Virus genome (UHGV): UHGV-0305615
Strand: one strand, 5' to 3'
DNA: 30,965 bases
DNA from: a virus
In this document: positions 9,849 through 30,793 of the stretch, piece by piece
Numbering within the stretch: the stretch's first letter is position 1
How the letters are laid out: the number at the start of each line of letters is the position of its first letter
Program-made: the position numbers and the translations under genes
Notes under the pieces: model-generated
Databases searched by the model: none
What the model was told of the DNA's origin: nothing
What the model saw: the letters and a program-made list of their open reading frames with translations, nothing else

Positions 9849-10179
9849 ATCAGCAGCAGAGCGCAAAGCCGCTCAGAGAGCCAGACAAGCTGCATCCGGT
9901 GTACGTAAGCTGGAGATTGTGCTGGATGCTCAGGAAATTGAAATGCTGGAGCGTAGCTGTGCCACGCGTCGCCCCGGGCGTGCGCCTTACGAATTTGGTG
10001 AGTATATAGCGTTACTGATCCGCCAGGATGATGCACGCGTGCACGGGCGTATAAAATCGATCAGCAGAAAACGTTGCGGTAAGTGCGGCGAGAGAGTTCC
10101 TGTGAATTCATGCCCGTGTAATGGTGACTCGCAATGCTGGGTGACTAAAGGCTGGCATGAAACGAAATTAATAGTGTGA
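9841..10179 (+). CDS. Hypothetical protein (112 aa): basic N-terminus plus C-terminal zinc ribbon
   Basis: ATG 9841 with AAAGGTGAA RBS; CGKCGERVPVNSCPCNG; stop codon lies inside the 12-bp palindrome. Confidence 0.55.
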   Translation: MAKSAAERKAAQRARQAASGVRKLEIVLDAQEIEMLERSCATRRPGRAPYEFGEYIALLIRQDDARVHGRIKSISRKRCGKCGERVPVNSCPCNGDSQCWVTKGWHETKLIV

Positions 10180-10187
10180 CATGTCAC
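10176..10187. repeat. Perfect 12-bp palindrome GTGACATGTCAC (copy 1 of 3)
   Basis: Exact sequence; identical copies at 12627-12638 and 29977-29988. Confidence 0.6.
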
Positions 10188-12626: not shown

Positions 12627-12638
12627 GTGACATGTCAC
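12627..12638. repeat. Perfect 12-bp palindrome GTGACATGTCAC (copy 2 of 3)
   Basis: Exact sequence. Confidence 0.6.
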
Positions 12639-15620: not shown

Positions 15621-15913
15621 CAGATTACGAAGACGATCAACTGAAAGAAGAAAACGCCCGTAAGCAACGTGACATGGCACAGCGTGAAATTGATGACATT
15701 CGCTTTGTCATGAGCAGTGAACAGGGGCGTCGCGTTGTCTGGTCGGTGCTGGAGAAAGGCCGGGTGTTTTCCGCTATCTCTCCGATGGATGCTATGGCAA
15801 TGGCATTTAATGAGGGGCAACGCAATCTGGCGCTGGAACTGTTTCAGCGCGTTATGGCGCATTGCCCTGAACAGTATTTGAAGATGGCCAAAGAGGCCAG
15901 TGAACAGGAGTGA
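15617..15913 (+). CDS. Hypothetical head-module protein (98 aa)
   Basis: Complete ORF overlapping the portal stop. Confidence 0.55.
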   Translation: MTDYEDDQLKEENARKQRDMAQREIDDIRFVMSSEQGRRVVWSVLEKGRVFSAISPMDAMAMAFNEGQRNLALELFQRVMAHCPEQYLKMAKEASEQE

Positions 15914-29072: not shown

Positions 29073-29513
29073 CTATTCACAATTAGTGATGGCGTATGTA
29101 TCAAATATATTGCCATCACTAAATACATACCTATACTCAATCTCTCCGCCAAGGTGAATAAATGCTTTCATTTGCCTGTTGGAGCAAATGCTCGATTTTG
29201 AATAATTTCGCATTACACTCTTTAATTTATTTTCTAAGGTTACATCACCATTATAAACTTTTGATAAATAGCTGTTGTTGTAATTAAGATGCGCTACAAC
29301 TAAAAGTTTGTTTAGTATTGCATTTATTGAAACAATAGACATATTATCATTCAATTTTATGGGAAGTGACTTTCCTGCTTCTGATGCAATTTTGTTTGCA
29401 TGTGCACACATATCCTCATTTATTAAATTCTTAAAACATATGTCGTTTGCAAACGAAAAAATTGGTAGGATAAACAAAACGGTAGCTGTAATAGCGTGCA
29501 TCGGCTTAATCAT
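29073..29513 (-). CDS. Hypothetical secreted protein (146 aa) with N-terminal signal peptide, AT-rich cargo gene
   Basis: MIKPMHAITATVLFILPIFSFA then NDICF...; 4 Cys; coding DNA roughly one-third GC versus ~50% in flanks. Confidence 0.55.
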   Translation of the reverse strand: MIKPMHAITATVLFILPIFSFANDICFKNLINEDMCAHANKIASEAGKSLPIKLNDNMSIVSINAILNKLLVVAHLNYNNSYLSKVYNGDVTLENKLKSVMRNYSKSSICSNRQMKAFIHLGGEIEYRYVFSDGNIFDTYAITNCE

Positions 29514-29525
29514 TAGGTGACCTTT

Positions 29526-29975
29526 ATGTTCAAGAAGATGATCAACAGATTAATCGGTGGTAAGGAGGTTAGCAATAAAATTCAACCTCTTATCTTTAAG
29601 GATAACTTTTCAGCTTTTGAGTATGCGTGTAAGTATCTTGACACAAGCCTTTCAGCCAATAAACCAATGCCAGCCATCATCATACCTGGTCCCAGTGGGG
29701 AACAGCCAGTTTTGCTAGATTCTGGAAGACAAAGGGCAATGCTGAAGGTGTGCTCAGCTGATGGTGGATTTTTTGTTATTGCCGATTCATCTTACAGCAA
29801 AGGACCAAAGCTGAGGATTGGTGATCTTGTTGCTTGGTTGCCTGTGAGTTATGCCGAAGAATTAACGGATAAAATAGAAGATCCTCGCTCCGCTATGGTT
29901 GGCTTTATATTGGGAACCATTCATCCTGAACTAACATCTACTGGCTGGAAGGGTAAAGAAAGATTTCGCAAGTAG
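29526..29975 (+). CDS. Hypothetical cytoplasmic protein (149 aa), AT-rich cargo gene
   Basis: ATG 29526 with AGGTGA RBS (track start 29517 is GTG); divergent from the secreted-protein gene with only ~12 bp between starts. Confidence 0.5.
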   Translation: MFKKMINRLIGGKEVSNKIQPLIFKDNFSAFEYACKYLDTSLSANKPMPAIIIPGPSGEQPVLLDSGRQRAMLKVCSADGGFFVIADSSYSKGPKLRIGDLVAWLPVSYAEELTDKIEDPRSAMVGFILGTIHPELTSTGWKGKERFRK

Positions 29976-29976
29976 C

Positions 29977-29988
29977 GTGACATGTCAC
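29977..29988. repeat. Perfect 12-bp palindrome GTGACATGTCAC (copy 3 of 3)
   Basis: Exact sequence, 1 nt after the TAG of the 149-aa gene. Confidence 0.6.
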
Positions 29989-30013
29989 AGGCCGCTTTCG
30001 CGGCCTTGTTTTT
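29989..30013 (+). terminator. Rho-independent terminator
   Basis: AGGCCGC-TTTC-GCGGCCT hairpin followed by TTGTTTTT. Confidence 0.6.
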
Positions 30014-30173
30014 AACGAATGCCACCGCCGCCCGGGCGGGAATCCGCAGAACGCCCACCGCAGCGGGAGCCGTCAGCGGCAGTATCGCTGTCGTGCTGAC
30101 AACGACCGGCAAAGGCCTGAGTTGAAGCTACCAGAGACAACAAAACGAACAGTGCAGCAAATGCTTTTTTCAT
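30012..30173 (-). CDS. Hypothetical small secreted peptide (53-aa precursor, 2 Cys in mature part)
   Basis: Internal ATG 30173 of track ORF 30012..30245; MKKAFAALFVLLSLVASTQAFA signal-peptide-like; upstream TTGACG-16-TATAGA promoter-like element; RBS weak. Confidence 0.35.
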   Translation of the reverse strand: MKKAFAALFVLLSLVASTQAFAGRCQHDSDTAADGSRCGGRSADSRPGGGGIR

Positions 30174-30245
30174 TGTGACATTTCCATCTATAAGCCACCT
30201 CGATGTGGCGTCAATGAGTGTAGCACTGACTTTTGTTTCGTCCAT

Positions 30246-30266
30246 AAAAAAGCCCGCAACGCGGGC
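30246..30266 (-). terminator. Rho-independent terminator ending the membrane-protein operon
   Basis: GCCCGC-AAC-GCGGGC hairpin followed on the minus strand by T6 (A-run 30246-30251 on plus). Confidence 0.7.
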
Positions 30267-30270
30267 TTAT

Positions 30271-30603
30271 TCAGTTATTTACTTTCTTTGGCACTATTGC
30301 TGATAATGAGATCATAAAGCCAGTTAGAGCAGCAATAATTAATGGGAATATGAAAGCATCTGAAGTTCTCAGTGGATTCTTCATATCGAACAGAATAACA
30401 ATGAAGAATGCGCTGGTTGCAAAAGTAGATGATGAATAAACCTCATTCATCTTGTATTGCAACTTATCCAAAGAAAAAGGAGGCGTATCTTTGCAAACGG
30501 CATCCCATATCAGATGAACAGCAAGATAAGCAATGCACAGTATGAAATAAAACCTTGTCAATTGCTGTGCATCTCTGGGCGCAAGCCAAGATAAATCAGG
30601 CAT
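30271..30603 (-). CDS. Hypothetical membrane protein (110 aa, about three predicted TM segments)
   Basis: Hydrophobic stretches FYFILCIAYLAVHLIW, FATSAFFIVILF, AFIFPLIIAALTGFMISLSAIV; start 1 nt after upstream gene's stop. Confidence 0.6.
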   Translation of the reverse strand: MPDLSWLAPRDAQQLTRFYFILCIAYLAVHLIWDAVCKDTPPFSLDKLQYKMNEVYSSSTFATSAFFIVILFDMKNPLRTSDAFIFPLIIAALTGFMISLSAIVPKKVNN

Positions 30604-30604
30604 T

Positions 30605-30793
30605 TTAGTTGGCTAACTTCTTTGCGGCATAGATAGCAGGGAGTGCAACAGCACCAGCCACAGCAAATGCATAGGCTATCCCAGCTGTAACAGTAAAAGC
30701 AGGAAGCAGGAAAGATAATCCGCCTGGTAGGGCAAAGCCTAAGCCCGCTCCGCCAATAATGGCCTTCAGCAATGTAATGATGTTGATTTCCAT
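30605..30793 (-). CDS. Hypothetical small membrane protein (62 aa, Gly/Ala-rich, two hydrophobic segments)
   Basis: GAGGGGG RBS; MEINIITLLKAIIGGAGLGFALPGG... with charged C-terminus KKLAN. Confidence 0.55.
   Translation of the reverse strand: MEINIITLLKAIIGGAGLGFALPGGLSFLLPAFTVTAGIAYAFAVAGAVALPAIYAAKKLAN

Follow-up and report, generated by a model that had tools for sequence, protein, structure and literature searches.

The window analysed here, a 30,965-nucleotide stretch of viral DNA (UHGV virus genome UHGV-0305615), is an epsilon15/phiV10-like (Uetakevirus) prophage of Escherichia coli, and the subject of this report is a small gene on its minus strand that very probably encodes an exported peptide. 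The open reading frame (ORF) runs from 30173 to 30012, including its TAA stop codon (30012..30014), and its 53-amino-acid (aa) product, MKKAFAALFVLLSLVASTQAFAGRCQHDSDTAADGSRCGGRSADSRPGGGGIR, can be divided into a signal peptide and a mature part as MKKAFAALFVLLSLVASTQAFA|GRCQHDSDTAADGSRCGGRSADSRPGGGGIR. A first-pass annotation, made from the sequence alone, had proposed a secreted peptide of this length with two cysteines; the ORF is present, and it lies on the minus strand, which that annotation had left unstated. The codons of the signal peptide, M1-A22, occupy 30108..30173, with cleavage predicted after A-F-A, and those of the mature 31-aa peptide occupy 30015..30107, the conserved module described below ending in RPGG. 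The first cysteine of the mature peptide, Cys25 (30101-30099), and the second, Cys38 (30062-30060), enclose a 12-residue loop.

Read 5' to 3' on the minus strand, the locus consists of the stop codon of a 110-aa membrane ORF at 30271, an intrinsic terminator, a leader of about 75 nt, and the peptide ORF. The terminator, which belongs to the upstream (variable) gene, was found by a terminator scan at 30243..30268 on the minus strand; it has an 8-bp stem with six G-C pairs (30268-30250) followed by a T-run, and it insulates the peptide gene from the rest of the leftward unit. The same hairpin precedes the cassette in phages TL-2011b, phiv142-3 and EC.W1-9 and in the Klebsiella loci L007 and L016. 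Five nt past the stop codon lies a second, G+C-rich terminator hairpin (29989..30006, both strands), shared by the peptide gene and the convergent plus-strand genes; its T-run is on the plus strand only, and the minus-strand sequence that follows it reads GUGACAUGUCAC. In all genera compared a hairpin stands 3–10 nt 3' of the stop codon, in several of them with a proper T-run. The outer edge of the conserved cassette is a perfect 12-bp palindrome, GTGACATGTCAC (29977..29988), which marks a mosaic junction beyond which the sequences differ between phages. The region encoding the mature part has a G+C content of 67%, against about 40% in the flanks, because of its Gly, Arg, Ala and Asp codons. 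Two other ORFs at this place were set aside: a 77-aa form starting at an upstream ATG at 30245 (PHROG 3117) is an over-extension, as its added part runs across the terminator and promoter and lacks conservation in other genera, and an antisense 47-aa ORF (29982..30125, plus strand) was judged to arise from the G+C-rich coding strand that it faces.

Comparison across genera indicates that the ORF is a real gene whose protein is under strong purifying selection. A single-sequence search returned 57 clusters (at 90% identity) from E. coli, Shigella, Klebsiella, Citrobacter, Cronobacter, Franconibacter, Salmonella, Pectobacterium and Dickeya, and a profile search returned more than 1000. Selection was assessed by Nei-Gojobori counts on 21 distinct gene sequences from about 13 genera. 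In the mature core the summed proportion of differing synonymous sites (pS) is 0.69, which is saturated, and the ratio of non-synonymous to synonymous proportions (pN/pS) is 0.14; the signal peptide, with a pS of 0.67 and a pN/pS of 0.35, diverges faster than the mature part. Between the window and the Rahnella copy (L014), for example, 18 of 19 synonymous sites of the core differ, as do 4 of 56 non-synonymous sites. The family alignment has a near-invariant mature core (C25, D30, A32, G35, S36, R37, C38, G40, R41, S42 and D44-G49 are unchanged in 18 sequences) behind a leader that drifts in sequence yet stays basic, then hydrophobic, then AxA. Saturated synonymous change together with a low pN/pS points to selection acting on the protein in this frame, and the lack of conservation that the first-pass annotation had named as grounds for giving up the gene is the opposite of what the searches found. 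Against the PHROG profiles the peptide matched phrog_14503 with an E-value of 2.3e-40 (residues 1-53 on profile positions 1-53 of 53) and also phrog_3117, the over-extended 77-aa form, with an E-value of 4e-36; it has the hallmarks of the former family, namely a leader, C-x12-C, and a G-x-R-S-x-D-S-R-P-G-G core.

The leader is composed of an n-region, MKK, a 13-residue h-region, AFAALFVLLSLVA, and a c-region, STQ-A-F-A. Under a rule-based assessment (a basic n-region, an h-region of 7–15 residues, small residues at -3 and -1), these are the features of a substrate of the Sec pathway and signal peptidase I, as the first-pass annotation had supposed in calling the signal peptide classic, and the AxA site is kept throughout the family. 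Among 126 stand-alone homologues the residue at -3, five before the first Cys, is A, S or V in 117 (93%) and that at -1, three before the first Cys, is A or S in 112 (89%); position -2 is mostly F, Y or L, and +1 is G in 118. Cleavage by signal peptidase I is thus predicted after A-F-A, two residues before the Cys. A lipoprotein processed by signal peptidase II was rejected, there being no lipobox of the form [LVI][ASTVI][GAS]-C: F-A-G-R precedes Cys25, and the residue directly before the Cys is N, R or P in 114 of the 126. On these comparisons the peptide is very probably translated and exported, and it is likely that the product is cleaved to give a soluble 31-aa periplasmic peptide, in which the two invariant cysteines, 12 residues apart, would be expected to form a disulfide.

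Further searches showed that the mature part extends well beyond enteric phages. It corresponds to a module of about 27 residues with the consensus G-x-C-x4-D-x-A-x-D-G-S-x-C-G-x-R-(S/A)(A/S)-x-x-R-P-G-G. Scans of 185,579 species genomes with back-translated motifs found 57 loci, all genomic matches being in diderm bacteria; they include Mesorhizobium, Rhizobium/Agrobacterium, Bradyrhizobium, Devosia, Methylobacterium and Microvirga, as well as Anabaena/Dolichospermum/Nostoc, Vibrio, Rhodoferax, Bacteriovorax and Polyangiaceae. The translated loci share one design, a signal peptide followed by (G)-x-C-x4-D-[RT]-A-[AS]-D-G-S-R-C-G-x-R-[AS][AS]-x-x-R-P-G-G-x-stop, and stand-alone secreted forms occur in Rhizobiales, cyanobacteria and Vibrio. 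An exhaustive HMMER search with the mature part against 1.84 billion representatives gave 183 clusters at E<=1e-3. The module ends at most six residues from the C-terminus in 143 of 191 instances, 74 of the 191 are stand-alone peptides of at most 75 aa, in 12 the module directly follows an N-terminal signal peptide, and a few proteins carry two copies. A four-Cys variant (GNCPCPY..NGSRCGGRSAYSRPGG.SP.CY) co-occurs with SH3_3 and PG_binding_1, and the further fusion partners are T2SS-T3SS_pil_N and NucA/NucB; every partner is a domain of exported proteins. Most of the long homologues are unnamed metagenomic proteins, and among them there may be stand-alone peptides whose gene calls were extended too far.

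Scans of Pfam, NCBIfam and PADLOC with the peptide, its distant homologues and 101 long module-bearing proteins found no family that covers the module, and neither sequence nor fold comparison, including against the PDB, matched a solved structure or known fold. Across 44 non-enteric loci there was no conserved partner gene, and a Pfam search of 10 neighbours of the non-enteric copies gave a mix of housekeeping and mobile genes; with no conserved neighbour outside phages, the peptide appears to act alone. Measured against curated databases, what is new here is that the mature part, as its sequence relatives indicate, is a widely distributed domain-like module.

Two candidate promoters precede the gene. 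The first-pass annotation had pointed to a promoter-like element directly after the terminator, and the sequence it described is there: TTGACG (30214-30209), a 16-nt spacer and TATAGA (30192-30187), together spanning 30187..30214 on the minus strand and overlapping an inverted repeat. It is probably not the conserved promoter, since it is confined to the E. coli lineage; its -10 lacks the key final T, for which reason a consensus scan misses it, one intact copy (L005) has TATGGA in place of TATAGA, and it would put the start site at or after the positionally conserved Shine-Dalgarno-like GGA. By comparison, a T-A-n-n-n-T hexamer is invariant in 17 aligned upstream regions from 10 genera, at a constant distance of 40–49 nt from the ATG. 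In the window this hexamer is TACACT (30222-30217) with TG at 30225-30224, making an extended -10, TG-c-TACACT (30217..30225, minus strand), with a predicted start site near 30210. Because the hexamer is invariant across genera and the other element limited to one lineage, TACACT, about 30 nt further upstream, is probably the better -10 candidate and is the best-supported promoter element at the locus.

Just downstream of this conserved -10 lies the inverted repeat GCCAC-N6-GTGGC (30194..30209, minus strand). A hairpin or inverted repeat stands 5–8 nt downstream of TAnnnT in 15 of 18 homologous upstream regions, and its stem arms differ between genera while changing in step (GCCAC/GUGGC, GCCGC/GCGGC, CACCACC/GGUGG). 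The repeat is either a 5' mRNA hairpin, which is the simplest reading, or a palindromic binding site for a protein, that is, a co-evolving operator; as a repeated operator it was rejected, the window holding a single copy. After the hairpin come a conserved CUACACA-like stretch and a weak, positionally conserved GGA/AAGGA. In the window this is GGAAA (30181..30185, minus strand), 7 nt 5' of the ATG, with GGA, GGU or AAGGA at that position in other genera, in agreement with the weak ribosome-binding site noted in the first-pass annotation. In the predicted transcript the start-codon region 30174-30184 (AAUGUCACAAUG) can pair with the 3' palindrome at 29977-29988 (UGUGACAU), a pairing that would occlude the start codon if transcription passes the hairpin; as L002, L003 and L005 carry mutations in the 5' partner, it is probably fortuitous.

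The prophage setting proposed in the first-pass annotation holds up, as the cassette matches Uetakevirus phages (96–98% identity to TL-2011b, phiv142-3, HEMP4 and EC.W1-9) and E. coli ExPEC XM (100%); the records of these relatives label the ORF 'putative transmembrane anchored protein' or 'hypothetical protein'. The peptide gene always comes last in an accessory unit that points leftward, convergent with the end of the large virion and ejection-protein genes. Its upstream neighbours in E. coli vary (a BRO-N antirepressor, then YafO, DUF4760, DUF2335 or small membrane ORFs), and in Cronobacter the sole upstream neighbour is an epsilon15 gp19-like ORF of 85 aa; the position of the gene is unchanged in Klebsiella and Cronobacter prophages. 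The Pectobacterium copy lies in a different, siphovirus-type prophage, and therefore the cassette has moved between unrelated phage backbones. At that locus (Pectobacterium polaris, L008, 1-5826) there are Phage_Tail_Tip genes, the peptide gene adjoins a gene for a 1366-aa MuF_C-domain protein, and a Colicin_M/Fer2 ORF is nearby.

Among otherwise syntenic Uetakeviruses the gene is present in some (TL-2011b, phiv142-3, EC.W1-9) and absent from others: phiV10 and the O157 typing phages lack it, and all that remains there is the terminator and roughly 23 nt from the 3' end of the gene. Within 5426 complete E. coli genomes the 295-bp cassette occurs in 538, with differing upstream neighbours, and the ORF in 427–463 (about 8%), including that of enterotoxigenic E. 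coli (ETEC) H10407; a gp19-like marker of this prophage type occurs in 529, so that about four-fifths of such prophages carry the gene. The gene has terminators of its own, in the form of the upstream hairpin with its T-run (30268-30250) and the hairpin 5 nt past the stop codon. For a promoter of its own there are the two candidates described above, TAnnnT (30222-30217) and TTGACG-16-TATAGA, neither of which passes a consensus scan. This self-terminated layout and patchy presence among syntenic phages give the gene the anatomy and distribution of a moron, a concept said to go back to Juhala, Hendrix and colleagues in 2000, and they bear out the first-pass description of a separately terminated, stand-alone accessory gene of a prophage.

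The surroundings of the cassette also vary. An AT-rich island (24–37% G+C) between the last ejection-protein gene and the cassette holds two divergent ORFs, neither of them with a Pfam family: one of 146 aa (29073-29513, minus strand; phrog_8772), whose product has a clear signal peptide (MIKPMHAITATVLFILPIFSFA), and one of 152 aa (29517-29975, plus strand; phrog_9944). In other phages the same position holds other genes, such as one for a Rap1a-like periplasmic protein in Klebsiella L007, and the island is probably a second moron slot. On the other side, between the BRO-N antirepressor and the peptide gene, a variable slot contains two small hydrophobic ORFs, of 110 aa (30271-30603, minus strand; phrog_36716) and 62 aa (30605-30793, minus strand; phrog_13406). 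In other E. coli prophages the slot is filled by the YafO toxin, DUF4760, DUF2335 or orf9/orf10 of phiv142-3, and it looks like a hot spot for cargo; orf10, just upstream of the peptide orthologue, is reported to raise serum resistance (PMC7724020). The palindrome at the cassette edge recurs within the window, exact copies lying at 10176-10187, 12627-12638 and 29977-29988 and one with a single mismatch at 15669-15680. Three exact copies compare with a chance expectation of about 0.004; all three stand at gene ends, two of them directly beside terminator hairpins. Prophages of Cronobacter, Kluyvera, Klebsiella and Buttiauxella likewise have the palindrome beside their peptide cassette, with divergence beyond it; it could be a regulator-binding site or a module-boundary or recombination sequence.

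We suggest that the gene is a prophage moron for a soluble periplasmic peptide that may bind a component of the cell envelope, and we regard this, taken as a whole, as the best explanation and a reasonably probable one. Leftward transcription would start from the gene's own weak sigma-70 promoter, the likeliest -10 being TG-n-TACACT (30225-30217), and would yield an mRNA of about 200 nt, opening with a short hairpin and closing with the hairpin that the gene shares with the convergent operon of virion genes. The 53-aa pre-peptide would be exported by Sec and cut by signal peptidase I after A-F-A, releasing a soluble 31-aa peptide into the periplasm, where its cysteines would be oxidised to a disulfide closing the 12-residue loop. 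The peptide would then amount to one copy of the module and would serve as a small unit that binds some conserved component of the envelope, the foremost candidates for the ligand being peptidoglycan or a bound divalent cation. A ligand-binding role is proposed because small, terminal, repeatable modules on diverse exported proteins typically bind ligands; by that analogy, binding of an envelope ligand is a tentative proposal, which we would not put at even odds. In the lysogen the free phage copy might alter or occupy the envelope component, for instance to the benefit of the lysogen or to the hindrance of superinfecting phages. In this scheme we infer which promoter is used, that the disulfide forms, that the peptide is soluble in the periplasm, that it binds a ligand and that the lysogen benefits.

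A more far-reaching and more doubtful version would have an ancient disulfide-closed envelope module of diderms, about 27 residues long and with a conserved ligand, captured by Uetakevirus-like prophages as a free periplasmic decoy or effector. If true, it would establish a new kind of periplasmic effector encoded by phages as well as a new family of protein domains, and a competitive decoy for a cellular binding site could lead to superinfection exclusion or to a fitness or virulence trait.

Several observations weigh against the explanation that we prefer. In the consensus scan both candidate promoters score under the thresholds or just at their margin, the gene has a weak Shine-Dalgarno sequence, and the E. 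coli lineage has no minus-strand U-tract at the hairpin downstream of the stop codon. A Pfam partner is found in only about 8 of the 101 long module-bearing proteins, so that few cases stand behind a link to the cell wall. In about 45% of the long proteins a hydrophobic stretch comes just before the module, which, if their N-terminal signal peptides are real, could place the module in the cytoplasm there. The AlphaFold model is moderately confident, with a predicted local distance difference test (pLDDT) score of 71, and has no structural analogue. Finally, the orthologue of the peptide in phiv142-3, Orf11, is not among the genes significantly up-regulated in serum versus lysogeny broth (PMC7724020).

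Two alternatives concern the nature of the product. The conserved item might be a small RNA of about 200 nt, running from promoter to terminator, or else a chance ORF in G+C-rich DNA, with no translation in either case; the weak Shine-Dalgarno sequence, the compactness of the unit with its 5' hairpin, and a transcript that folds slightly better than shuffled sequences (z = -2.1) would fit such a reading. The overwhelmingly synonymous substitutions in this frame (pN/pS 0.14, with pS saturated) effectively refute it, and we give it almost no weight: the leader changes in sequence while its signal-peptide properties persist, homologues in other phyla keep 45–60% aa identity where DNA similarity is gone, and a scan against Rfam found no family on the ORF, its sub-threshold matches falling on the upstream terminator only. 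That the segment stays uncleaved, leaving a tiny bitopic inner-membrane protein (N-in, C-out) with the Cys-loop module on the periplasmic face, is less easily dismissed, though we still think it unlikely. NCBI and phage records do name the product a 'transmembrane anchored protein', and in many longer homologues the module comes straight after a transmembrane-like hydrophobic stretch, so that 'helix plus module' could be the unit; the name, however, is a prediction only, with no publication attached. A 13-residue h-region is short for a stable anchor, and the -3/-1 rule, the aromatic -2 and the Gly at +1 are kept in about 90% of the 126 homologues despite the drifting leader, a pattern expected from selection for cleavage. 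The short h-region and the conserved cleavage motif are why a cleaved, soluble peptide seems likelier than a membrane anchor.

Two others concern what an exported peptide would do. It might be a superinfection-exclusion or anti-phage factor that blocks podovirus genome ejection in the periplasm, for instance at the ejection proteins or lytic transglycosylase encoded next to it. Such a role would suit the constant place of the gene in Enterobacteria, at the end of the ejection-protein gene cluster, and the toxin- or defence-like cargo that the slot also holds (YafO, DUF4760, the Rap1a-like periplasmic protein in Klebsiella); prophage-encoded exported and membrane proteins such as T5 Llp, phi80 Cor, P22 SieA and HK97 gp15 are, moreover, a known source of exclusion. 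Yet neither the peptide nor any of its four neighbours matched PADLOC-DB at E<=0.1, and the module is common, as a stand-alone peptide or a domain of exported proteins, in chromosomes of Rhizobiales, cyanobacteria and Vibrio with no phage context, which argues for a general envelope role over a phage-specific target and leaves this idea improbable. No more probable, in our estimate, is a role in buffering or sensing metal in the periplasm, with the disulfide loop serving as a DxDxDG- or Excalibur-type site for a divalent cation (Ca2+). The acidic loop, C-Q-H-D-S-D-T-A-A-D-G-S-R-C, ends in D-G-x-x-C as Excalibur does (Rigden and colleagues reportedly described that motif in 2003 as DxDxDGxxCE), and, again like Excalibur, the module is small, Cys-bounded and extracytoplasmic, stands alone after a signal peptide and in one case is fused to a nuclease. 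Pfam, however, gave no Excalibur or EF-hand family match even at E<=1, and of the residues in a canonical loop (Asp at ligand positions 1, 3 and 5, Gly at 6) the central Asp, at position 3, is replaced by an invariant Ala and the first, in many members, by Gln (W-Q-T-A-x-D-G-S), which leaves the set incomplete; His27, for its part, is conserved in enterics only. The resemblances to Excalibur and to the Ivy loop are leads only.

The first-pass annotation had said that small periplasmic peptides in prophages are often undescribed conversion factors. A part in conversion would be conjecture for this peptide, and 'undescribed' is correct as regards function only: the protein is annotated (RefSeq WP_000708858.1, PHROGs), and its annotation comes with neither a function nor literature. 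Literature searches on the family name, on accessions and on motifs of the sequence yielded no paper in which the peptide is mentioned; the ZX5 paper makes no mention of the gene, and the phiv142-3 paper studied the neighbouring orf10 rather than the peptide gene (PMC7724020). Its carriers comprise about 8% of complete E. coli genomes, among them ETEC H10407, K1 and avian pathogenic E. coli strains, together with related Klebsiella, Cronobacter, Salmonella and Pectobacterium prophages. Few small-protein sequences are as strongly constrained as the 25-residue core, and the module, found across Proteobacteria, cyanobacteria and other diderms, has no Pfam entry. The gene is thus well supported, common and easily tested, if unsurprising in kind, as a 31-residue peptide is cheap to make and its structure, its ligand and its effect on phage infection or envelope stress are directly testable. 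If it does bind the envelope, a new envelope-binding domain could be named and a very common prophage moron given a function; if no activity turns up, it will be one more well-annotated hypothetical small protein.

Set beside known systems, the closest relatives are the members of PHROG 14503 and of the NCBI 'transmembrane anchored protein' entries (TL-2011b gp43, YP_007001994.1; WP_000708858.1; phiv142-3 Orf11), which are identical or near-identical to the peptide and occupy the same prophage position. By sequence, PHROG 14503 is the family of this peptide, and 'anchored' in the family name is probably wrong because the cleavage site is conserved. The gene is an uncharacterised addition to a known class, the prophage morons for exported proteins, of which the classical lambdoid examples for the envelope are bor and lom of lambda, cor of phi80 and gp15 of HK97. 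Like them, it is bracketed by a promoter-like element and terminators, is present or absent among syntenic relatives, sits beside virion genes, is itself of atypical base composition, and has a product predicted to be targeted to the envelope; unlike them, its peptide is far smaller (31 aa when mature), has no sequence relationship to theirs, and is neither a lipoprotein nor an outer-membrane barrel. With Excalibur (PF05901) the module shares its nature as a small Cys-bounded extracytoplasmic unit, with D-G-x-x-C at the second Cys, that occurs alone or appended to secreted enzymes. It differs from Excalibur in lacking profile similarity, in being shorter (C-x12-C), in having an invariant Ala for the central Asp and an extra R-x4-R-P-G-G tail, and in genomic matches confined to diderms. 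The module also resembles LysM, SPOR and PG_binding_1 in being a short, repeatable, extracytoplasmic add-on, sometimes found with SH3_3 or PG_binding_1; it has no similarity to those domains in sequence or fold, and binding of peptidoglycan is hypothetical here.

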